This document shows positions 1-29,426 of a DNA stretch of 64,000 nt, piece after piece (within the stretch, counting starts at the first letter, position 1; each line of letters opens with the position of its first letter). Under the pieces are notes generated by a model. That model was given only the letters and a program-made list of their open reading frames with translations, was not told the origin of the DNA and ran no database searches. The position numbers and the translations under genes are program-made. The stretch is from Nitrospirota bacterium (GTDB taxonomy: Bacteria; Nitrospirota; Thermodesulfovibrionia; Thermodesulfovibrionales; Dissulfurispiraceae). The stretch covers positions 320,001-384,000 of the forward strand of contig CAWBMP010000005.1 in assembly GCA_963790025.1 (NCBI GenBank), in the 5' to 3' direction.

Positions 1-2230
1 CCTGCATGCGTTTAAGATTATTGGATTTGCCACCTGTATTTTTATCATTGAAAGCATTCATTGCTACGACGTAGACACTGAAAGGCGCAAACCCCGCCAT
101 CGCAGACCCTAAAGAGACTTTGGCTTTTTGGGGGGTACTCATTTCTTCCCTGCTTTCTTCGAATGCGACCTCGCCGATTTCGTTTGTGCTCAGCTTTATG
201 CGGCGGCCGCCAAGTGATTTCAGCTTGCCGATCACATCAGAGTCGTAACAAACGGCAAAGAGTATACGCACATTTCTGGCCCTGACAGCCAGATGGGACA
301 ATACATCTATTGATGCAGGCGTTATAAGGGCGACAACTCCTTCGGGAATTTCCTCGTCGCCCCTCACATCGCCGGCAATGATGACGGTAGGGCGGCTAAA
401 ATTCTTGCCCTGGATGGATTTTAAATTAAGCACGGTTTCAATCACCCCTGTCGTCTCATGGCCGGGACTGATCACTTGCCAGTTTCCGAGGTCTGCGCTT
501 TTCCGCAAAACAGGATCAAGTTTGCGCAAAAGTGCCGAGAGGACAAACGCAGGTCTGCCGCGCACCACTGCTTCAGCAAAAAGCTTAATAGTCCATGGAG
601 CTGCATGAAAGGCATTGCCGAGGGCTTCGGCTTTGGGCTGAAGGAGTTGGTAATACCGGTCAATGAAATTGCCGATGCCCCTCTGAAGGCGGTCGACAAC
701 GGCTTTGGACTGAAGCGGCCACAGGGTGCCGGGACCGGGCATCTTGCCCAGGCGCTTAAAGTAAAGAAGACAGTTCTTAAACTCCTCGTCCGGATTTGAG
801 AGACACAGGTTTTCAAGAGACACTTTGGTCAATCCGACGAGTTCATCTACTGTCAGCTTCCGGTCCAGGTTTTTTTCGACAACGGCCCTGAATAGGTCTT
901 CAAGGGCCAGATCGAGAAAAAGGAGATCGCGCACAGAGCTTTGGTGCTCGCCGAGTCTGCCCGTCACCGCGTAGCGGGCCTCGGTGATCTTTTCGAGGAG
1001 TATGGGCACGTCCTCTCCGCGATCATCCCGATGCCTCCATATATAATCCATCAGGCTGTGCATTTCCGCATCAAACAGATACCGGGCATTATTAATGGAC
1101 GCTCCGAGATCGGTGCCGGAATGTACCTCCCTCAGTATTCCAAGGAAATGCTCGAAATCGTGAATGAGCGCATCTTTCAGGTGAGGAATGAACTCCGGGC
1201 TGGATATTATCGGGCGCTCATAAGTTTCCAGCCGTTTCCGCGGAACACCGCCTTCTTCGAGTCTCTTATAGAACAGATCAAGCTTCCCGTCACTTCTCAG
1301 GAATTCCAGGTAGGCCTCACATATGACGATATCGTCGGGCGTGGCGTTGTTATGGAGTTTCTGGTGCCATTCCTCCATAAAATGTCCCGCCATCTCTTTG
1401 ATGTGGTGGCGATGCATGATATTCAGTATCTCGTCGCGGACCCGCTGGGCGTCCTTCCCGGTGCCGAGCGTTGTCATCATCAGGCGGATGAACTCGCGCT
1501 CCCCCGGCTCAAGGATGTAGCGGCCCGCAAGCTTCAATGTAAGGCGGTCCATGGCATGGCCTAATTCGCGCGGTTTGGTATTATAGTTTCGCTGCCAGTC
1601 CAGTTGCCTGATATAAGAAAAGCGCAGCCAGACATAAAGAAGGGCAATGCCGTCGACGTCATTGCTTGCAATCCCGTCCAGCAGGTCGTAACAGAGATTT
1701 AACCTGTGCATCAATGTCCATGAATTGCGGCCAATTTCATTTTCGATTATTTTATCTGTAATGGCGGCAAGTTCGAGACTTTCTGAAAAAGCCTCCTGTC
1801 CGGAAGACGGAGCAACGGGTATGAAAAAGTTTTGTCCCTTATCTTTTATCCAGCGCCCTGTATCGCTTTGCTTTAGAACAAACCAGATACCCAGGGGCGC
1901 TTCGTCTTCGCTGGAATCAAGGAGCAGCAGGCTGGTACCATCGCTATAGGCGCTGTCGGCAAATGGCGTCTGGGCCGCTGTGTCCTGGAATACGGTTGTA
2001 CCGGGAGGCCGAAGAGAGGATTGCGGCAAAACCCATTCATGGCGCGACTTATATGCTGCTCCCCAATGCAGGATCAGGGGGCCCCGTATATCGGCAAGCA
2101 GTGCAATAATGTAATGCCTCTTGTCTTTGGTCACAACAACAGCCAGTTGCCCTTCATCAAGCCGGTACGGGCGTTCATAAACGATCTTTTCCTGATCTAC
2201 CGCTTTTTTAAGTTCTTCGATTAAAAGCAT
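1..2230 (-). CDS. alpha-glucan,water dikinase (GWD/R1/SEX1)-like protein, 3' end runs off the window
   Basis: Not in the ORF track because there is no stop inside the window. Hand translation from ATG 2230 is open to base 1 (MLLIEELKKAVDQEKI...). Contains CBM45-like LHWG..EW.LP...PGT..FVLK..W.K..G.NFFIP; MHRLNL; VWLRFSYIRQLDWQRNYNTKPREL; QRVRDEIL; FMEEWHQKLHNNATPDDIVICEA; VHSGTDL; LDPVLRKSADLGNWQVISP; GDEEIPEG; DVLSHLAVRARN (His codon 293-295, residue 646); and TGGKSNNL at the start of the nucleotide-binding domain. Confidence 0.92.
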   Translation of the reverse strand, partial: MLLIEELKKAVDQEKIVYERPYRLDEGQLAVVVTKDKRHYIIALLADIRGPLILHWGAAYKSRHEWVLPQSSLRPPGTTVFQDTAAQTPFADSAYSDGTSLLLLDSSEDEAPLGIWFVLKQSDTGRWIKDKGQNFFIPVAPSSGQEAFSESLELAAITDKIIENEIGRNSWTLMHRLNLCYDLLDGIASNDVDGIALLYVWLRFSYIRQLDWQRNYNTKPRELGHAMDRLTLKLAGRYILEPGEREFIRLMMTTLGTGKDAQRVRDEILNIMHRHHIKEMAGHFMEEWHQKLHNNATPDDIVICEAYLEFLRSDGKLDLFYKRLEEGGVPRKRLETYERPIISSPEFIPHLKDALIHDFEHFLGILREVHSGTDLGASINNARYLFDAEMHSLMDYIWRHRDDRGEDVPILLEKITEARYAVTGRLGEHQSSVRDLLFLDLALEDLFRAVVEKNLDRKLTVDELVGLTKVSLENLCLSNPDEEFKNCLLYFKRLGKMPGPGTLWPLQSKAVVDRLQRGIGNFIDRYYQLLQPKAEALGNAFHAAPWTIKLFAEAVVRGRPAFVLSALLRKLDPVLRKSADLGNWQVISPGHETTGVIETVLNLKSIQGKNFSRPTVIIAGDVRGDEEIPEGVVALITPASIDVLSHLAVRARNVRILFAVCYDSDVIGKLKSLGGRRIKLSTNEIGEVAFEESREEMSTPQKAKVSLGSAMAGFAPFSVYVVAMNAFNDKNTGGKSNNLKRMQ

Positions 2231-2234
2231 GTTC

Positions 2235-3743
2235 TCATGTAATGCCTTTCCTCTCGATCATCCGGAAATGATCAGCGAATATCTTGCGGAAATGAAAGCC
2301 GTATATCGAAAACGTTATGGCCAGAGGGAACAGTTTCGGATGCCTGAAAAGGGACCAGAAGAATAATCTCCAATAATAGAAACGCTCTTTCCCTATTATC
2401 CCGAGTATGAGCACAGACTTAAATCCTGCTTTAACATAGCTGTACCGCATATGGATTACATTTTTCTGGACCGGCCTGTACTCTCGCAGGAACAGTTTGA
2501 CCCGCTTATAGTAATTTTTTGGAGAATAGATTGTATCGATGATTTGTTTATAGCCTGTGATTAGTCCTTCGTAGTTCATCTTTGGAATGAAGTTCATTGA
2601 AAAGTCCGTATTGTCCCCCGACACAGCGTTCAACAACCTGTTTTCTCCGACCAACCGGTGATAGAGCTTTGTCCCACGCGGCGCATTCAGGAGTCCTACC
2701 ATTGCCGTCACAATCCCGCTCTCCTGGATGAACCCTATCATCTTCTCAAATATCGAGGCCGGGTCTTTATCAAAGCCGACGATGAACCCGGCCTGGACCT
2801 CAAGCCCGAAACTTTGTATCTTCCTGACACTCGCTATAAGGTCCCTGTTCCTATTCGGTATTTTTGTGCATTCAAGAAGGCTTTCCTCGTTGGGAGACTC
2901 GATGCCAACAAAAACAGTACTGAACTCGGCCCTCGCCATCATTTTCATGAGGTCCTCGTCGTCGGCCAGATTGATGGACGCTTCGGTCGAGAGCGTAAAA
3001 GGATGCCTCTTCAGGTCCATCCATTGGATAATCGACGGCAGTATCTCCTCTTTCAGTTTCTTCCTGTTCCCGATGAAGTTGTCGTCAACGAAGAATACCC
3101 CGCCCCTCCAGCCGAGAGAGTAAAGTTTCTCCAGTTCGCCGATTATCTGACCGTTGTTTTTTGTCCTGGGGACCCTGCCGTATAGTGAGGTTATATTGCA
3201 GAATTCGCAATCAAAGGGGCACCCCCTCGAATACTGGATATTCATGGAGGCGTAATCCTTCATGTTTATAAGCTCCCACAAGGGAATGGGCGTGGTCGTC
3301 ACATCGGCCCATTTATTCGATGTGTAGAGACTTTTGGGCCGTCCCTCTCTCAAATCGTTCAGGAACGGATGAAGCGTAATCTCCGCCTCGTTGAGCACAA
3401 GATGGTCTATGTCGGGAAACTCTTCGTGATCATTGGTAAAGAGCGGGCCTCCGGCAACCACTTTAACGCCTGCGGCCCTGCATCGTTTGATAACGGTTTT
3501 TGCCGATTCCTTCTGTATGGACATAGCGCTCAGAAAGACATAATCCGCCCACAGAAGATACTTGTCTTTCAGTTTCCGGACATTCATGTCCACGAGCTTT
3601 TTCTCCCATTCGCATGGAAGCATTGCTGCCACTGTCAGCAGCCCGAGTGGCGGATTGACGGCTTTCTTTGATATGAACTCGAGGGCATAGGAAAAACTCC
3701 AGAAGGTATCGGGATATTCCGGATATATAAGAAGGACTTTCAT
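2235..3743 (-). CDS. B12-binding radical SAM protein (DUF4070/HpnP-like family)
   Basis: N-terminal cobalamin-binding domain (PPLGLLTVAA), RGCPFDCEFC (CxxxCxxC), FFVDDNFIG. Start moved to ATG 3743 behind AAGGAG. Confidence 0.88.
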   Translation of the reverse strand: MKVLLIYPEYPDTFWSFSYALEFISKKAVNPPLGLLTVAAMLPCEWEKKLVDMNVRKLKDKYLLWADYVFLSAMSIQKESAKTVIKRCRAAGVKVVAGGPLFTNDHEEFPDIDHLVLNEAEITLHPFLNDLREGRPKSLYTSNKWADVTTTPIPLWELINMKDYASMNIQYSRGCPFDCEFCNITSLYGRVPRTKNNGQIIGELEKLYSLGWRGGVFFVDDNFIGNRKKLKEEILPSIIQWMDLKRHPFTLSTEASINLADDEDLMKMMARAEFSTVFVGIESPNEESLLECTKIPNRNRDLIASVRKIQSFGLEVQAGFIVGFDKDPASIFEKMIGFIQESGIVTAMVGLLNAPRGTKLYHRLVGENRLLNAVSGDNTDFSMNFIPKMNYEGLITGYKQIIDTIYSPKNYYKRVKLFLREYRPVQKNVIHMRYSYVKAGFKSVLILGIIGKERFYYWRLFFWSLFRHPKLFPLAITFSIYGFHFRKIFADHFRMIERKGIT

Positions 3744-5811: not shown

Positions 5812-7250
5812 GCCAATTTAGAAATGTCCTATTTTTACCAAAATAGAAATGTCCGGTTTTTACGCTGCTGCTTTCCTCAACCTTTTCCTCAACTCTTGCC
5901 TTTTGAATATAAGGTCTTGTGATGTTCTCCAGAGATGATCTTTTGCCGGCACGCTATTTTGTGAATATCGTCTAATGGTGCTTTTCTCTTTATTCATCTT
6001 TTCCGGCCGGGCATCAATTTCTTTATACTTAATGCGCCTATCCTGGTACATTACTAACATCGTGCCGTCAATGCGTTCTTCGACTATTACTCTCGTCTTC
6101 TTTGGAAACGCCTCTTTAAGCTGATAGATTTTTTTATTGTGCCGTATAGTATTGTCATTTCCTACTGTATGCTCTGACCGTATACATAATATCCTGTTGA
6201 GGTTAAGTCCCTTTGGAATAGCCCTATGAATATCTTCCTTATGATGCGGATGAACCATAAATTTCTTATTAAAGTCAGCCCAATAATGTTCTTCCATGAA
6301 CATGTTTGCTTCTTCTATTGTGTTGGTTCCACGCAGTCGCAGTTCCTTTACCAGTCGGTCCTGTAACGTTTCATACAGCCTCTCCACGCGCCCTTTCGCC
6401 TGAGGAGAATAAGCATGAATGCGTTTTACTCCAAGTTCTGCCAATGCTCTGCCAAACTCGCTCAAGGGTTCAGTGCCGTTAATCTCGTCCTCTATGGAGG
6501 GCTCAGATGAAGATTTATAGGTCTTGTGCCTATCAAAATATACGCTCATAGGAATGCCATATTTCCTTATGTACCGCTTAAAACTGTCCATCGCAGGGAT
6601 TGTGCCCTCGTATTCATAAAACCTGCCATATACTCTGCCCGTTGCGTCATCTATATAGGCCATTAGAACACATTGTGGGCCTCTGTCTTCAAACCATTTG
6701 TGATGTGAGCCATCCATCTGCAACATTTCCCCACAATTCATTTTCCGTGGACGCCATTGTCTATGTATCTTTCTTTTTCGTCTTTTCTGCCATTCTCCTG
6801 CCTCGATAAGCCATAAGCGTAAGGTCTCATCACTTATCTTTATTTCGTCTATCTCAAAGAGCTTTTCTGCTGCCAGAGTAGGCCCAAATCCTTTATACCG
6901 CTCCTTATATAACTTGATAACCCTTTCTTTGAGCTTCCTTGGCCTTTGTCTGTTCGATTGTCTGCCGCGAGATCGGTGCCTTATTCCTGTATCCCCTTCC
7001 TCGGTTATACGTTTAACTATTCTCCTTATCTGTCTTTCACTCATTGAAATAATTTCGGCTGCCAGCCTCTGAGTTATCTCTCCTTCGATTACTTTGTGAA
7101 TTACATGCAATATCCTCAATTCCTTCTGCCGTACCATGATAATGTCCCCTTCTGCCATCCCGCCTCCCTCTCAAAAAGAGGCAGTATAGCATTACCTCAA
7201 TAGGACATTTCTAAATTGGTACTATAGGACATTATCATTTTGGCGCGACA
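5806..7250 (-). mobile_element. insertion sequence, IS1202-type (often annotated ISNCY), 1445 bp
   Basis: Imperfect terminal IRs starting TGT (TGTCAAGCCAATTTAGAAATGTCCTAT vs TGTCGCGCCAAAATGATAATGTCCTAT), each with two AATGTCC-core subrepeats; 16-bp flanking direct repeat; single DDE transposase. Confidence 0.88.
5860..7158 (-). CDS. DDE transposase (IS1202/ISNCY type)
   Basis: N-terminal HTH; integrase core EMLQMDGSHH, VYFDRH, PQAKGRVERLYETLQDRL; GGAGG RBS. Confidence 0.93.
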   Translation of the reverse strand: MAEGDIIMVRQKELRILHVIHKVIEGEITQRLAAEIISMSERQIRRIVKRITEEGDTGIRHRSRGRQSNRQRPRKLKERVIKLYKERYKGFGPTLAAEKLFEIDEIKISDETLRLWLIEAGEWQKRRKRKIHRQWRPRKMNCGEMLQMDGSHHKWFEDRGPQCVLMAYIDDATGRVYGRFYEYEGTIPAMDSFKRYIRKYGIPMSVYFDRHKTYKSSSEPSIEDEINGTEPLSEFGRALAELGVKRIHAYSPQAKGRVERLYETLQDRLVKELRLRGTNTIEEANMFMEEHYWADFNKKFMVHPHHKEDIHRAIPKGLNLNRILCIRSEHTVGNDNTIRHNKKIYQLKEAFPKKTRVIVEERIDGTMLVMYQDRRIKYKEIDARPEKMNKEKSTIRRYSQNSVPAKDHLWRTSQDLIFKRQELRKRLRKAAA

Positions 7251-7310: not shown

Positions 7311-7465
7311 GATTATTTATTACTGCGATACAAAATCCATATTAGACATAAGGACAGGTTTGTAATATGATGAGAGTGAGATCATGATTGACCGGCATTG
7401 CGGTATTTCTCCGGCTTGTGCCCGGCATTAGTAAAGCATAGATGAATTTTTCAGAAGGAGGCCAC

Positions 7466-10051
7466 ATGGACGACAATGGCACGTTATCCCGAAGAGACTT
7501 TCTGAAAGTTGCGGGCGCCACAGGGGTTGCGATTACGCTGACTGGTTTCCCGTTTCGCAATCTGAAGTCAGTAGCTGCATTCGAACGCCATCCCCAGGAA
7601 CAACCAGCGTTTCAAATCACCAAAAAAATTCCACAGGTATGCGCCCGCGCGTGCGAAGTGAATTGTGCTTTCTACGTCGCGGTCGGCACTGATCCCAAGA
7701 CCGGACTTGAAAGGGCCATGACAATTGAGGGTATGCCTCAGGACCCTATTGCGCAGGGCAAGTACTGCATTAAGGCCCTGGGCTATGTCGATTCTCTTTA
7801 CGACCCGGACAGGCTTATGGTCACCCTGAAAAGAACCAACCCGAAGAAAGGCACCGACCACGATCCTGGCTGGGTGACCGTACCTACAGACGATGCGGTG
7901 AAGGACATTATCGAAGTATTTAAAGCACATAAACGCGAAGAGATACTCATCGCTTCGCCCGGTGATCCTGCCACCAACAAACTGTGTCGTTCACTCGGTG
8001 TGACAAGGAGTGACCAGCGGACGGAGTGTTTCGGCACCCACTACTATATTAATTGCCTCACCCTGACGAATCCCCCGAACAAGTATTACTCGAGTACTTA
8101 TACCCCTAGCCATCACGTGCCCGGTTTCGACTATGATCTCGCAAAATACCAGATCTGGTTTGGCTTCGATTCCATCAGCAAATGCGGAAAGGCCGGTCTT
8201 ATTACCCATTGGGTGAAGTGCAGGAAAAACGGGGGGAAGGTTGTCATGTTCAATCCGGTAAGGACACCTATGGCTGATGATTTCGCTGCCGAATATCATC
8301 CGATCAAACCCGGCACCGACCTTGCGGTTGCTCTTGCGATAATAAATGTGATCCTTGCCGGCAAGAAGTATAATGCCGATTTCTTGAAGGATTATACCGA
8401 TGCTCCAGCGCTCGTCGATGAGAAAACAAAGACTGCCATAAAGTCCAAGGACGGGGGCTTTTATGCATGGTGTCAGAACCATAGGCGAGTGGAACCGCTG
8501 GATACCTGCGATGCGCCGTCTGTTGAGGGTGGAAGCTTTGCAGTGTCAATTGATGGCCGACCGGTCCAGGCCAAACCGGTATTCCAACTATTGATCGATG
8601 CCAATAAACAATATACTCCTGAATGGGCTGCACCTCTCAGCGAGGTGCCTGCAGATGTTATTCACAGGATAGCACTGGAACTTGCTGCAGCAGCACCCTA
8701 TGCTATGGTCCCAAGCAACAAGCGTGATGCTGCCGGTCCGAATTATGCGAACAGCTGGAGACTGCGTCACGCAATCAGCGTTATAAACACACTTATAGGT
8801 TCGATCGACCATGAGGGCGGGGTTCTGCTCCTGCATGGCGTAAAGATTCCCTGGTATGAAGATCTCGCCCAGCCTGTGGAACCGTATCCCCCGCTGCCTG
8901 TCATACAGGCAGATTTCAGGCAAGAGTTTCCTGTCACGAACAACATTTACAGGAATAAGGACTTTTCGGCGCCGGGCCATTACGGAATGCTCGGATTCGG
9001 CCTGTTGAATACTGACATAACCAAAGTGGTGTTCTTTCGGAACCCTCATAGGGGACTCTATGCGTTTGTTCAGCCCCAAATGGCTGAAAAGGGTCTCGAA
9101 AAGATGGACCTGGTGGTCGACTGGAACCTCTATCTGGATGATCTTGGCTACTGGTGTGATTATGTGCTTGCAGCTCCACATCAATATGAAGAATCCAAAT
9201 TGGACATACGGTCCTACTATCCGAAATACGCATGTCTTATTGGAGGCGCAGCTATCAGGGCTGAACTTCCCGGTGATCAGATAGGATGGGGCAGCCTTGC
9301 CAAGGCAATAGGTATGGCGCTCGCTCCCAAGTACTGGACGACGGACGGCAGCGGCGATCCGAAGAAAGCAGTTCCGACTAATATTACCGATGTCGCGGTC
9401 AAAGGTGTCGGGGCAGCCGAAAATACCAAAGAGTTTATGAAGAAAGGCGGCTTCTGGATCGACAAGTCACCCTATCAGAACTATAAACAGATAAGAGAAG
9501 TCGGATACGGTACGCAGAGCAATGGACGCGTAAGGATGTATATCGACGAGTTTGCCCGGGTCGGGCATGAGCCGCTGCCGAAATGGGCCCCACGCTGGAC
9601 CTCGCCTGAAGGTGAATTCAAATTTTCTAAGGTGGTTACAAGAGCTCCCTGGATCATGCATGCAGATCCGAACTTCGTCAACAATCCTATTTTAAAAATC
9701 ATGACAGCCAGGAATTACATGGACTGCGTCTGGCTCAACCCTGAAGCTGCAAGGCGGCTGGGGCTCAAGGAGGGTGATGAGGTCATGCTGGAAAATGACC
9801 CAAAATACATGAAGGTCCTCCCCCGTCCGATGAAGGCCAAGCTGCATCTTAGCAAGCGTATTGTAAGGGAAGATTGTGTTCTTATGTTCCACGGTATAGG
9901 ACACAGGGCCAGGAACCTGACCGTCGCAAGGGATTGGGGCTATCGTGATGGCGACCTCACTCCCCAGAAGGACCCCGCGATGAGCAAGAAGCATGATCCT
10001 ACAGGTATGGGCTGGGTCGAAGATGTCTATCTCAGCGTCAGGAAAGCGTAG
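7466..10051 (+). CDS. Tat-exported molybdopterin (bis-MGD) oxidoreductase catalytic subunit, Psr/Phs/Arr-like
   Basis: SRRDFLK twin-arginine signal; FeS motif CARACEVNC...YCIKA; IKPGTDLAVALA; C-terminal WLNPEAARRLGLKEGD dinucleotide-binding domain; AGGAGG before ATG 7466. Confidence 0.9.
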   Translation: MDDNGTLSRRDFLKVAGATGVAITLTGFPFRNLKSVAAFERHPQEQPAFQITKKIPQVCARACEVNCAFYVAVGTDPKTGLERAMTIEGMPQDPIAQGKYCIKALGYVDSLYDPDRLMVTLKRTNPKKGTDHDPGWVTVPTDDAVKDIIEVFKAHKREEILIASPGDPATNKLCRSLGVTRSDQRTECFGTHYYINCLTLTNPPNKYYSSTYTPSHHVPGFDYDLAKYQIWFGFDSISKCGKAGLITHWVKCRKNGGKVVMFNPVRTPMADDFAAEYHPIKPGTDLAVALAIINVILAGKKYNADFLKDYTDAPALVDEKTKTAIKSKDGGFYAWCQNHRRVEPLDTCDAPSVEGGSFAVSIDGRPVQAKPVFQLLIDANKQYTPEWAAPLSEVPADVIHRIALELAAAAPYAMVPSNKRDAAGPNYANSWRLRHAISVINTLIGSIDHEGGVLLLHGVKIPWYEDLAQPVEPYPPLPVIQADFRQEFPVTNNIYRNKDFSAPGHYGMLGFGLLNTDITKVVFFRNPHRGLYAFVQPQMAEKGLEKMDLVVDWNLYLDDLGYWCDYVLAAPHQYEESKLDIRSYYPKYACLIGGAAIRAELPGDQIGWGSLAKAIGMALAPKYWTTDGSGDPKKAVPTNITDVAVKGVGAAENTKEFMKKGGFWIDKSPYQNYKQIREVGYGTQSNGRVRMYIDEFARVGHEPLPKWAPRWTSPEGEFKFSKVVTRAPWIMHADPNFVNNPILKIMTARNYMDCVWLNPEAARRLGLKEGDEVMLENDPKYMKVLPRPMKAKLHLSKRIVREDCVLMFHGIGHRARNLTVARDWGYRDGDLTPQKDPAMSKKHDPTGMGWVEDVYLSVRKA

Positions 10052-10062
10052 GGGAGGGAAAA

Positions 10063-10650
10063 ATGAAAGAATATGCCATTCTGCTTGACACTACTTATTG
10101 CACAGGCTGCAATACATGCGCTTATAAATGCATACAGGAGTTCAGGGACCAGAACCAGGCCGCACGCGGCTTTTTCAGGGCCTTTGTTCAAATGAATGAT
10201 GATGGGATGTATCAGCAAAGGTGCATGCATTGCAAAGACCCTCAATGCGTTAAAGCCTGCTCCACAGGTGCTCTTTCAAAATCGCAGTATGGTCCTGTAT
10301 TGTTCGATGCCGGAAAATGTGCCGGAGACAAAAAATGCGTGGCCGCCTGCCCGTTTCAGGCCATTCAGTTTGATGCTTCTTCGGCAAAGATCGTCAAATG
10401 CAGCATGTGCGCCCATCGGATAAGCCAGGACAAGGAACCGGCGTGCGTAGAGGCATGTCCTTCCGGAGCTTTGCAATTCGGAGAATACAGCAAGCTTGCA
10501 GAAGTCGCAAAGACAACTGCCGCAAGGGACAACCTGAACATATACGGGCTGAAAGAAAACGGCGGTACGCATATGATAGTTCTTCTCAAGGGAAAACCCG
10601 AGGATGTCGGGTACCCGGCTGTAGCAGGGCTTGCCCGGCTCCTGGGCTGA
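10063..10650 (+). CDS. 4Fe-4S dicluster electron-transfer subunit (DmsB/FdnH/HybA-like)
   Basis: CTGCNTCAYKC, CMHCKDPQCVKAC, CAGDKKCVAACP, CSMC...PACVEACP. Confidence 0.92.
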   Translation: MKEYAILLDTTYCTGCNTCAYKCIQEFRDQNQAARGFFRAFVQMNDDGMYQQRCMHCKDPQCVKACSTGALSKSQYGPVLFDAGKCAGDKKCVAACPFQAIQFDASSAKIVKCSMCAHRISQDKEPACVEACPSGALQFGEYSKLAEVAKTTAARDNLNIYGLKENGGTHMIVLLKGKPEDVGYPAVAGLARLLG

Positions 10651-10656
10651 ATTTTA

Positions 10657-10678
10657 AGGGCGGCCTCTCGGCCGCCCT
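10657..10678 (+). terminator. GC-rich hairpin (possible attenuator or mRNA stabiliser)
   Basis: AGGGCGGCC-TCTC-GGCCGCCCT, 9-bp perfect stem with a weak T tail. Confidence 0.45.
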
Positions 10679-10698
10679 ATTCTTGAGGAGGAAAACTG

Positions 10699-11379
10699 AT
10701 GCCCGGATTGGACCAAAAACAGAACTTGGCACAGACAAGACTGACTCTCTATGGCCTGTTCGCCCAAGCTCTCAATTATCCTGACCATGAGCTTATTCAG
10801 CGGCTTTCGAGCGGCGAGTTTGTTGATAGCCTGTGCACTTCCCTGGACACCCTCGGACAGGCACTGCAGGAAAGGGACGTGACTCGACTGAAAAGTGCTT
10901 ACTCTGATAAGTCGCGGGAGGAAGGTGAGCTGCTTCTGGAACTTGAGAAAGAATACACGAGGATATTTTTTGCTTCGAGGCCTCGCCTGGCTTACCTGTT
11001 CGAGTCGGTGTATAACGAGGGCAAACTGTACCAGGATTCGACATTTGAGATCGCCAGGCTTTACCACGATGCGGGGTTGAAACTCGGCGATGATTTCAGG
11101 CTGCCCCCTGACCACATAGCAGTGGAATTTGAATTCCTCTCGTTCCTGTGCTACAAGGAGATGGAAGGGGCCTGCAGTGGCGATGAAGAGGCCCGCGAGT
11201 ATGCTAGAGAATTGCAGGATGAAGTCATTGGAAAGCATCTTGGGCCTTTTGCCATTAACGTGGCCGAAAGACTTGAAAAAAACGCTGGTACTCTTTTTTA
11301 CAGGAGTATAGCTTTCGCAATATTGCGACATTTCGGCGGCACGCAGGGCCCGGATATTAATAATACTTTGCATAGGTAA
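10699..11379 (+). CDS. TorD/DmsD family molybdoenzyme maturation chaperone
   Basis: EYTRIF, ESVY, PPDHIAVEFEFLSFL motifs; follows the Mo-enzyme genes. Confidence 0.9.
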   Translation: MPGLDQKQNLAQTRLTLYGLFAQALNYPDHELIQRLSSGEFVDSLCTSLDTLGQALQERDVTRLKSAYSDKSREEGELLLELEKEYTRIFFASRPRLAYLFESVYNEGKLYQDSTFEIARLYHDAGLKLGDDFRLPPDHIAVEFEFLSFLCYKEMEGACSGDEEAREYARELQDEVIGKHLGPFAINVAERLEKNAGTLFYRSIAFAILRHFGGTQGPDINNTLHR

Positions 11380-27719: not shown

Positions 27720-29426
27720 CTACCTGATATACGCCTCCGTTACATATCTCCGCATCATTCTATGGGTATTGAAGTAATAAGCATTTTTGCCTATGGCGTT
27801 TTGCATAATGCGTATCCAGTGGGACTTGTCGTCATAAAACGTCGGCATAATGATGCTCTCCAGTTTGTAGTAAAGGTCATCTGCATCACGCGCCGGATCT
27901 GCCGGTATATCGGGAGACGGTCCTATGGCCCATCCCGTGAACCCTTCAATATGTCCCTCGATCCACCATCCGTCGAGTACGCTGAAATTAGGGACCCCAT
28001 TGTGGGTCGCTTTCATTCCGCTGGTCCCTGATGCCTCCAGCGGCCTCAGAGGCGTATTGAGCCATACATCCACACCTGACACCATCTTCAGGGCAAGGTC
28101 CATATTGTAATTTTTCAGGAATGCGATGTGTATTTTGTCCCTGAGCCGCTCTTTTACCTGAAATATGCGCTGTATCAGCTCTTTCCCCGATTCGTCATGC
28201 GGATGGGCCTTCCCGGCATATACAATTTGAAGCCTCCCTTCGGCCATGCGTGCCAGCCGGTCTATATCGGTAAACAGCAGGTCCGCCCGCTTATACGCCG
28301 TTGCCCTCCTGGCGAATCCGATGGTGAAAGTATCATAATTCATTTCCGCCTGCGTCTCACGGTTCACATAGTCGATCAGCTGCCTTTTAGCCTCCATGTG
28401 AGCTTCCCATAGTTCGTTGTCGGGTATGCGACCGACCCTGACAAATATCTCAGGCTCGTTAGCCCAACCAGGCAGGTATTTGTCATAGAGCCTTTTAAAA
28501 CTGTCACAGGTCCAGGTAAAAGAGTGTACCCCGTTCGTTATGGCATGGATGGCGTATCCTGGGAACATACTCTGTGAAACCTGACCGTGCTTTTTAGCTA
28601 CTCCGTTTATGTAATTGCTGAGATTCAGTGCGAGCAGGGTCAAATTAAGGTACTCATGCCCTGAAAATTCTTTTACAGCACTCAGGGGGATGATTTCCTT
28701 CATTATCCGCTCCACCGTATCATAAGTAAATTTGTCATGCCCCGCGGCCACGGGCGTGTGAGTGGTAAAGACGCATAGACTCCGGACTTTCTCGACGTCC
28801 CAGACGAGCTTCTCATCCCATACCTCTTCAATATCTCTTTTGTATCTTTTCAGCAATTCAAGAGTCAGCAGGCTGGAATGCCCCTCGTTCATATGATATT
28901 TCCTTATCATGAATCCCAGTTTCTCGATCATCCGTGTTCCGCCTATGCCGAGCACAATTTCCTGTTTAAGCCGGTAATCGAGTTCACCGCCATACAGGCT
29001 GAAGCAAATGTCCCTGTCCTTCGGAGAATTCTCTCCCAAGTCCGTATCAAGAAAAATAACGGGGACCTGTCCGCCAGTGGCACTTTCGACAACATATATC
29101 CAGGCCCCGACGAAGACCTCTCTGCCTTCAATATGAACGACTACCTGTTCCTTAACAGGCGACATGAACTGATTTGGCTCCAACTCATCGGGCATTTCCG
29201 TCTGCCTGCCGTATATATCAAGCTCCTGCCTGAAGTATCCTTTTTTTGTCAGTAAAGTGACTGCAATCATGGGCAGTTTCAGGTCAGATGCGGACTTAAT
29301 AGTGTCACCCGCCAATACGCCGAGACCGCCGCTATAGGTAGGCATATCGCTCCGTATCCCGATTTCCATTGAAAAGTACGCTATCTTTGGTTCTTTGATA
29401 AAGGTATCCAGATTAGAATATTTCAT
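27720..29426 (-). CDS. glgP: alpha-glucan (glycogen/maltodextrin) phosphorylase, short form
   Basis: YFSMEIG, YSGGLGVLAGD, HMNEGH, FTTHTP, ARRATAYKR, EASGTSGMKA (PLP Lys). Confidence 0.94.
   Translation of the reverse strand: MKYSNLDTFIKEPKIAYFSMEIGIRSDMPTYSGGLGVLAGDTIKSASDLKLPMIAVTLLTKKGYFRQELDIYGRQTEMPDELEPNQFMSPVKEQVVVHIEGREVFVGAWIYVVESATGGQVPVIFLDTDLGENSPKDRDICFSLYGGELDYRLKQEIVLGIGGTRMIEKLGFMIRKYHMNEGHSSLLTLELLKRYKRDIEEVWDEKLVWDVEKVRSLCVFTTHTPVAAGHDKFTYDTVERIMKEIIPLSAVKEFSGHEYLNLTLLALNLSNYINGVAKKHGQVSQSMFPGYAIHAITNGVHSFTWTCDSFKRLYDKYLPGWANEPEIFVRVGRIPDNELWEAHMEAKRQLIDYVNRETQAEMNYDTFTIGFARRATAYKRADLLFTDIDRLARMAEGRLQIVYAGKAHPHDESGKELIQRIFQVKERLRDKIHIAFLKNYNMDLALKMVSGVDVWLNTPLRPLEASGTSGMKATHNGVPNFSVLDGWWIEGHIEGFTGWAIGPSPDIPADPARDADDLYYKLESIIMPTFYDDKSHWIRIMQNAIGKNAYYFNTHRMMRRYVTEAYIR

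Follow-up and report, generated by a model that had tools for sequence, protein, structure and literature searches.

Predicted orthologues of both plant glucan dikinases in a bacterial operon with a probable role in reversible glucan phosphorylation

Background

Can a bacterium phosphorylate its storage glucan with enzymes of the kind that plants apply to starch? The question is raised by a 64,000-nucleotide stretch of contig C5 (CAWBMP010000005.1, assembly GCA_963790025.1; positions 320001-384000, hereafter the window) from a Thermodesulfovibrionales (Nitrospirota) genome, at whose left edge a preliminary description, made from the letters alone, recognized a homologue of the plant alpha-glucan,water dikinase (GWD). 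We find this gene in a four-gene operon that extends beyond the left edge, where positions are given in contig (C5) coordinates, and that also encodes a predicted orthologue of the second plant dikinase, PWD, two homologous barrel proteins (TIM1, fused to PWD, and TIM2), and an alpha-amylase-family (GH13) protein. The operon probably serves reversible phosphorylation of cytoplasmic alpha-1,4-glucan, with GWD acting at C6 and PWD at C3.

Bacterial GWDs are not in themselves new. The legend to Fig. 9 of Cenci 2018 (PMC6260743) states that lateral transfer could have brought GWD to some bacteria, and automatic JGI names also record the enzyme in bacteria, so that the preliminary description overstated its restriction to eukaryotes. 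Elsewhere the dikinases appear as hallmarks of starch (2026 preprint 10.64898/2026.09.25.754361), and enzyme-made phosphate in bacterial glucan is called speculative in a passage of PMC13011383; the excerpted passages of that paper and of PMC8703398 describe no bacterial dikinase, and in PMC13553574, on potato GWD, the string 'bacteri' does not occur. Among titles and opening lines of abstracts, with subscription journals outside the coverage, we found no study of bacterial GWD, PWD or barrels of the TIM1/TIM2 type. What is new here, as read from sequence, is that both dikinases of the plant module stand together in a bacterial operon and have accessory domains other than the plant ones.

Results

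The window encodes a GWD orthologue

As the preliminary description had it, an open minus-strand frame of 743 codons runs from an ATG at 2230 to base 2 of the window and holds all the motifs quoted for it. Followed leftwards, the frame continues with no frameshift to a stop at C5:319033-319035, giving an intact protein of 1065 residues with a complete ATP domain. The gene had also been called missing from the open reading frame (ORF) track; it is indeed absent from the list for the window, because it crosses the window edge, and the public protein set lists the identical 1065-residue protein among its called genes, with a name assigned automatically by JGI. The assembly is not chimeric here: the gene lies on a 639-kb contig of a genome that is 98.8% complete and 1.2% contaminated, and matches over most of the GWD length were found in all nine same-genus genomes searched (and in 5 of 31 other relatives), eight of the nine having the same downstream order and the contig of the ninth ending.

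The domains stand in the order that the family requires—CBM45, central, phosphohistidine, ATP—as judged by Pfam and a structure match, and the late RSDSNGEDL..GAGLYDS segment of the ATP domain is of GWD type, with a 17-residue insertion near residues 951-967. The top match among solved structures is the central domain of potato GWD (9HA9; Table 1), whereas chains of PEP synthase (PEPS) and rifampin phosphotransferase (RPH) matched over about 80 residues (best E 3.4e-16), and the NCBIfam models for those enzymes scored no more than roughly one-tenth of their cut-offs, the highest being 86 of 883 bits. Against cotton GWD1 the protein scored 708 bits (38% identity over 1095 columns), compared with 155-196 bits against three eukaryotic PWDs. 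Eukaryotic references were fetched with a mixed GWD/PWD profile (the best 150 of 1773 matches at E 1e-30, with names for 30), and in the resulting trees GWD and PWD separated completely (support 100/100 and 1.0). The GAGLY segment follows GLGE, the GWD-type order, in 68 of the 69 scored GWDs (5 of 74 were unscored) and precedes it, the PEPS-like order of PWD, in all 74 scored PWDs (38 of 112 were unscored). Pfam, the structure match, trees and bit scores thus agree with the earlier assignment to GWD, with His646, rather than to PEPS or RPH, and on sequence grounds we regard the window gene as a GWD orthologue.

Residues named for potato GWD (H992, E900, E901, R904, R923, W931, V989, L990 and E971; PMC13553574), among which E900, E901 and R904 have proposed, though not proven, acceptor-side roles, were mapped onto the host protein through cotton GWD1 (offset 84), and their conservation was scored in 119 relatives. 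The host equivalents H646, E553, R557, R576, W584, V643, L644 and D625 are kept or aligned, with His646 lining up with the plant catalytic histidine; H646, R557, R576 and W584 are invariant in 119/119 relatives and E553 is found in 115. The CBM45 tryptophans W56, W66 and W127 are kept in 112, 112 and 116 of the 119, the rest being nearly all gaps. The plant CFATC motif, whose cysteine pair we take to be the redox disulfide, has Leu657 in place of its first cysteine and only the second (C661) present, so that this disulfide cannot form in the host protein. Ratios of nonsynonymous to synonymous change (dN/dS) were 0.10-0.26 in 15 of 15 gene-by-genome comparisons of operon genes with three congeners, which places these genes under purifying selection; all four operon frames are intact in the host genome.

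PWD and two barrel proteins complete the operon

Three genes follow GWD on the same strand (Table 1). The first starts 8 nt inside the end of GWD and encodes the TIM1-PWD fusion, whose PWD part has a catalytic histidine (His766) and an ATP domain and is without CBM20, an AP_endonuc_2 barrel standing in its place. This part scores 570-581 bits against three eukaryotic PWDs and 161-191 bits against five GWDs, and is 37.5-39% identical over about 900 columns to PWD-clade proteins of Chlorokybus, Porphyridium and JGI 'Mesen1'. The central motifs, the histidine and the PEPS-like order of the ATP domain are all present, and in trees it groups with eukaryotic PWD. Automatic JGI names agree with both dikinase assignments; an Atlas search with the PWD central domain gave only leads below 0.8.

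By hhalign, TIM1 is a homologue of TIM2 (95.5%, E 1.3e-8). A TIM2 fold predicted from a 36-row alignment (pLDDT 91) is a xylose-isomerase/endonuclease-IV barrel; a fold from the single sequence was discarded (pLDDT 37). The TIM2 profile had 0 matches among PDB sequences, and in the Atlas TIM2 resembles only unnamed clusters, at 0.97-0.98. Nine putative metal ligands (His, Asp or Glu) are invariant in 49/49 TIM1 and 36/36 TIM2 sequences. Read on the sequence, TIM1 has 9 of 9 positions of the endonuclease-IV ligand register, a pattern that we take from E. coli Nfo, and TIM2 has 8 of 9 plus an adjacent Asp. Retained in both barrels are the N-terminal pair of His and the late Asp/His, which are marks of the three-metal site of endonuclease IV and are missing from one-metal sugar epimerases. 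The unnamed TIM2-like Atlas clusters (0.97) are most frequent in Actinomycetota.

TIM1 and PWD are fused in the host and in two congeners and are separate genes in the rest, which in several congeners reflects repeated fission of the fusion. Inserted DNA lies between the separate genes in L013:9800-12000 (a transposase-like ORF), L016:6200-12250 (about 6 kb), L014:10650-11810 and L017:7750-8500. The GWD or PWD frame is broken in congeners L012, L017 and L020, through assembly errors or decay.

The barrels are inherited with the dikinases

The GWD family in prokaryotes is rare but wide, and occurs mostly in uncultured organisms. A scan of 185,579 prokaryotic species genomes gave 308 confirmed GWD matches of 331; the record titles of the best 80 name Nitrospirota, Desulfobacterota/Deltaproteobacteria, anammox Planctomycetota, Acidobacteriota, unassigned bacteria and one 'archaeon', and look-up by name added members in Fibrobacteria, Planctomycetota and Auribacterota. 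Within Nitrospirota, the His-domain cut-off was passed by 22 of 401 genomes, all in the host's class, and by none of 14 controls. The record titled 'archaeon' (L075) is a 4.4-kb contig whose GWD is 62% identical to the bacterial core, and is probably mis-binned.

Gene neighbourhoods were counted in the 46 of the best 80 GWD loci with at least 9 kb beyond the GWD stop, the 34 short ones being dropped. TIM1 was present in 41 of these, including 10 of the 15 that lack PWD, and GH13 in 36. PWD and TIM2 occurred together in 30 loci and were both absent from 14, each being found without the other just once. The GWD/PWD tandem operon occurs across at least four phyla, and fusions among the loci include TIM1-PWD, TIM1-PWD-TIM2 and TIM2-GH13, the last in 6 of the 80.

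The same pairing is seen genome-wide in the 401 Nitrospirota, where TIM1 was found in 20 of the 22 genomes with GWD and in 1 of the 379 without it; nine of these 20 retain it although GWD is on a different contig or 650 kb distant. TIM2 was found in 8 of 10 genomes with PWD (six of the ten PWD calls were BLAST-checked and four inferred from score and position) and in 0 of the 391 without. GH13, present in 33 of 401 genomes, is a less specific partner. A second His-domain match in genome G268 is a second GWD and was taken out of the PWD count; its two GWD loci (L116 and L120) come with no PWD and no TIM1 match at E 1e-40. The sole exception to TIM1 following GWD is L115 (G360:C3:1291279-1293478), where TIM1 and GH13 are adjacent and no dikinase match was found genome-wide.

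Proposed function and its alternatives

From its gene content, the host carries a full glycogen pathway: glgC, two glgA, glgB, glgX, a GH57 branching-enzyme-like gene and five phosphorylase-family matches (tblastn). It is because of these genes that glucan phosphorylation, already suggested by the preliminary description for the bacterium's storage glucan, is the best reading of the operon. By analogy with the plant orthologues, GWD would bind glucan through CBM45, and its His646 would take the beta-phosphate of ATP, swivel and pass the phosphate to a glucosyl C6, after which PWD would phosphorylate C3 of the primed glucan; the phosphate would loosen ordered chains and give access to the GH13 enzyme, GlgX and phosphorylase. 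TIM1, paired with GWD, and TIM2, paired with PWD, would then strip off both phosphates, a task that falls to SEX4 and LSF2 in plants and that the barrels would perform with an unrelated fold. The preliminary description had proposed looking for a glucan phosphatase and for branching and debranching enzymes; the latter are present as glgB and glgX, and no laforin/SEX4/LSF2-type DSPc domain (PF00782) was found in the 98.8% complete host genome, a domain that 9 of the 14 controls match.

One of the five phosphorylase matches is about 570 residues long, a size also found upstream of GWD in three congeners. Further phosphorylase-family genes lie at window 27720-29426 (minus), C5:391408, C2:729851 and C2:57886.

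Several observations, set out in this and the next three paragraphs, weigh against the proposed function as a whole or in part. We found no published assay of any bacterial GWD or PWD family member, and nothing to indicate that the glucan of the host has an ordered structure or carries phosphate. The co-occurrence counts overstate the association, kin genomes not being independent. Potato GWD without its first CBM45 loses maltodextrin-stimulated activity (excerpted text of PMC13553574), and a Pfam search of the PWD fusion gave no recognized carbohydrate-binding module (CBM).

For the barrels, co-inheritance and metal ligands suggest phosphoesterases that erase both phosphates, a proposal that we hold tentatively, at somewhat short of an even chance. 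They could instead isomerize, epimerize or hydrolyse small products freed by GH13, such as phospho-maltose or glucose 3-phosphate, with the kinases still acting on glucan; we think this unlikely, though the main competitor. In fold, TIM2 comes equally close to isomerases, epimerases, dehydratases and endonuclease IV as its best matches (Z 18-19.4, rmsd 3-4, 7-16% identity), and its Asp252 is off the D-x-H register by one residue. Among PDB sequences TIM1 comes closest to the tagatose-epimerase-like MJ1311 (E 3.5e-13), neither barrel has a recognized glucan-binding module, and the TIM2-GH13 fusions would also suit an enzyme of small products. Set against this are the N-terminal His pair and late Asp/His of the three-metal site, kept in both barrels, and a weak match of TIM1 to the phosphodiesterase CbiR (E 2.6e-5, below cut-off).

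The dikinases, for their part, might work as a trap or in signalling, with soluble malto-oligosaccharides or some other carbohydrate as their substrate in place of the storage polymer. The single CBM45 on GWD and the lack of a CBM on PWD would fit, as would the restriction of the dikinase family to just 22 of 401 Nitrospirota, given how widespread glycogen synthesis is among prokaryotes (12 of 14 controls have the glgA domain). Conservation with potato GWD (9HA9) nevertheless extends over the central domain on the acceptor side and the CBM45 tryptophans are retained, and we judge this alternative improbable.

Doubt of another kind attaches to the host copy itself. The potato E901 site, adjoining the proposed proton donor, is Ala554 in the host (codon GCA, window 569-571) and Glu in 119/119 relatives, while the acceptor-side residues E900 (E553) and R904 (R557) are retained; the substitution may be a real loss or an assembly error, GCA being one base from GAA. 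The E971 site is variable among the relatives (D 76, N 27, E 9, Y 6), and several same-genus copies have frame breaks or insertions within the operon. If Ala554 were real, the host GWD could be crippled and the operon decaying, as the lineage-specific insertions in the GWD ATP domain and the operon breaks in some congeners might also suggest. We consider this quite unlikely, given four intact frames, the low dN/dS, the retention of E553, R557 and H646, and the ease with which a single C/A consensus error would explain Ala554. Reversible phosphorylation of the storage glucan stays our preferred, probable reading.

Trees and the origin of the pair

Trees were built from 186 cores over 751 columns filled in both families, after 14 partial or low-scoring rows were dropped and the rest dereplicated at 66%; many of the unnamed rows take their domain label from CBM20, TIM1 or their place in a clade instead of from a record. 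The GWD and PWD clades each hold bacterial and eukaryotic members, with no bacterial row among green plants, and in these trees the GWD/PWD split precedes both the bacterial and the eukaryotic radiations. Bacterial GWDs form one clade in a quick tree of 52 rows (SH-aLRT 94) and in a careful tree of 28 rows (79/72), and do not in a FastTree of all 186 rows.

A bacterial clade amid unresolved eukaryotic lineages, as in the first two of these trees, would allow one ancient transfer from eukaryotes, and lateral transfer to bacteria has been suggested (the Cenci 2018 legend, PMC6260743). Eukaryotic contamination or recent transfer from plant to bacterium is a different matter, with hardly any probability left to it: it is refuted by the intron-free, overlapping operon on its 639-kb contig, by the 308 matches in prokaryotic species genomes (with two single-chromosome records of metagenome-assembled genomes, MAGs, among the best 80), by a GC content of 0.47-0.52, like that of other host genes, and by tree positions, no bacterial GWD being nested among land plants or green algae.

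As to which way the transfer went, the bases of four trees conflict. Eukaryotic PWD falls weakly inside bacteria in one tree (81-83), with the reverse in two others; approximately unbiased (AU) tests reject nothing, eukaryotic monophyly included (p-AU 0.32 and 0.38). One protein of a Candidatus Auribacterota MAG, P0387 (MBN2143317.1), has a CBM45 and a central domain of GWD type, followed by an ATP domain in the ancestral, unpermuted order, and is sister to all GWDs; it is possibly a stem form, or else a domain swap, and its position favours a bacterial stem as a single case. A scenario that we offer as speculative, and consider unlikely as it stands, is that the whole two-kinase cycle arose in anaerobic bacteria, where the kinase would have duplicated and joined an operon with a new class of three-metal glucan phosphatases, one per position, before the pair reached the forerunner of the eukaryotes that make starch, where CBM20 and laforin-type phosphatases would have been swapped in. 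A bacterial origin is favoured by the tandem operon in at least four phyla, the position of P0387, the unrejected eukaryotic monophyly and the one PWD tree that weakly nests eukaryotes; against it stand the other trees, with bacterial clades amid paraphyletic eukaryotes, and the fact that P0387 is one MAG protein.

The preliminary description was right that the host GWD has one CBM45-like module; its suggestion that this bears on the origin of starch phosphorylation is not borne out. Eukaryotic GWDs have one (a ciliate, Mesostigma), two (plants) or three (a Cyanidium cluster), bacterial relatives with two modules exist, and 19 of 119 close relatives exceed 1120 residues, a proxy by length. As the count varies in bacteria and eukaryotes alike, no order of events follows from it, and the adjacent PWD and two barrels bear more on function and origin. 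A PWD-clade protein cluster from JGI metagenomes, P0383, lies near green algae and has a weak CBM45-like module instead of CBM20.

Other features of the locus

The features are collected in Table 1. The phosphorylase and glucose-6-phosphate isomerase (PGI) genes that converge on the operon were rejected as core members, being present in only 8 and 3 of the 46 loci, as was the B12-binding radical SAM gene (5 of 46, linked only within the genus), which is probably incidental. A scan for promoters and terminators was uninformative, finding 9 sites where 10.1 were expected and 14 where 12.2 were expected, respectively. A transposase-like ORF of 432 residues lies at window 5860-7158 (minus), and ORFs of similar appearance border the GWD region of congener L014; genes for a Tat-type molybdopterin oxidoreductase, an iron-sulfur subunit and a TorD-like chaperone, read from motifs only, occupy window 7442-11379 (plus).

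Table 1. Coordinates of the operon, its domains and its neighbours (window positions unless prefixed C5)
Feature	Position	Strand	Basis or remark
GWD orthologue	1..2230 (first 743 of 1065 codons); whole gene C5:319033-322230	minus	frame, Pfam, structure match, tree, bit scores
CBM45-like module, single, residues 25-139	1814..2158	minus	Pfam PF23166 Ig_N_CWD1, E 2.8e-26
GWD central helical domain, residues 156-579	494..1765	minus	PDB 9HA9, E 1.7e-82
Phosphohistidine domain, residues 583-696; catalytic His646 codon 293-295	143..484	minus	Pfam GWD1_pHisD, E 2.3e-34
C-terminal ATP domain, start only (K735 at 26-28)	1..82	minus	Pfam PPDK_N, E 5.8e-27; remainder left of window
TIM1-PWD fusion, 1168 aa	C5:315534-319040, left of window	minus	barrel about 1-270 (AP_endonuc_2, E 6.7e-21) plus PWD orthologue
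TIM2, 355 aa	C5:314540-315607, left of window	minus	outside any Pfam family; predicted fold a xylose-isomerase/endonuclease-IV barrel
GH13 alpha-amylase-family protein, 430 aa	C5:313251-314543	minus	three GH13 catalytic motifs seen by eye; GTGA overlap with TIM2
PGI	C5:309067-310698	plus	converges on operon
Alpha-glucan phosphorylase	C5:310695-313244	plus	converges on operon
B12-binding radical SAM gene	2235..3743	minus	ends 4 nt before GWD ATG

Discussion

A GWD and PWD operon amid ordinary glycogen genes would mean either that these anaerobes make ordered glucan or that phosphorylation serves glycogen too. Two questions become testable with it: the origin of starch phosphorylation, and whether bacterial glucan carries enzyme-made phosphate. 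The locus further provides compact dikinases, free of transit peptides, for starch modification, as well as candidate glucan phosphatases that have no relation to laforin.

Among known systems, the closest to the window gene is the plant and algal GWD1 (potato R1/StGWD1, Arabidopsis SEX1; EC 2.7.9.4), with which it shares domain order, the catalytic histidine, most interface residues and the order of ATP-domain segments. It lacks the features of the plant subtype—two CBM45 modules, DUF7067, an intact CFATC motif and plastid targeting—having as predicted one CBM45 and neither DUF7067 linker nor transit peptide, with Leu657 and Ala554 at the sites discussed and a place in a bacterial operon. Its neighbour resembles PWD/GWD3 (EC 2.7.9.5) at 37.5-39% identity, with an endonuclease-IV-like barrel replacing CBM20. 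PEPS, pyruvate phosphate dikinase (PPDK) and RPH share a homologous ATP domain and the swivelling-histidine chemistry, whereas their ATP domain is N-terminal and they have no central GWD domain. TIM1 and TIM2 have the fold and metal-ligand pattern common to the endonuclease IV/AP_endonuc_2 superfamily (PF01261), which includes CbiR, MJ1311 and TTHB071; unlike its named members, to none of which they are close, both are tied to glucan dikinases. As a whole, the operon is most like the plant cycle of GWD, PWD, SEX4 and LSF2, in that two dikinases, two candidate erasers and a glucan hydrolase are kept together; it differs in that the candidate erasers are metal TIM barrels, with no DSPc domain found in the host, and that they stand among ordinary glycogen genes, with no known starch.

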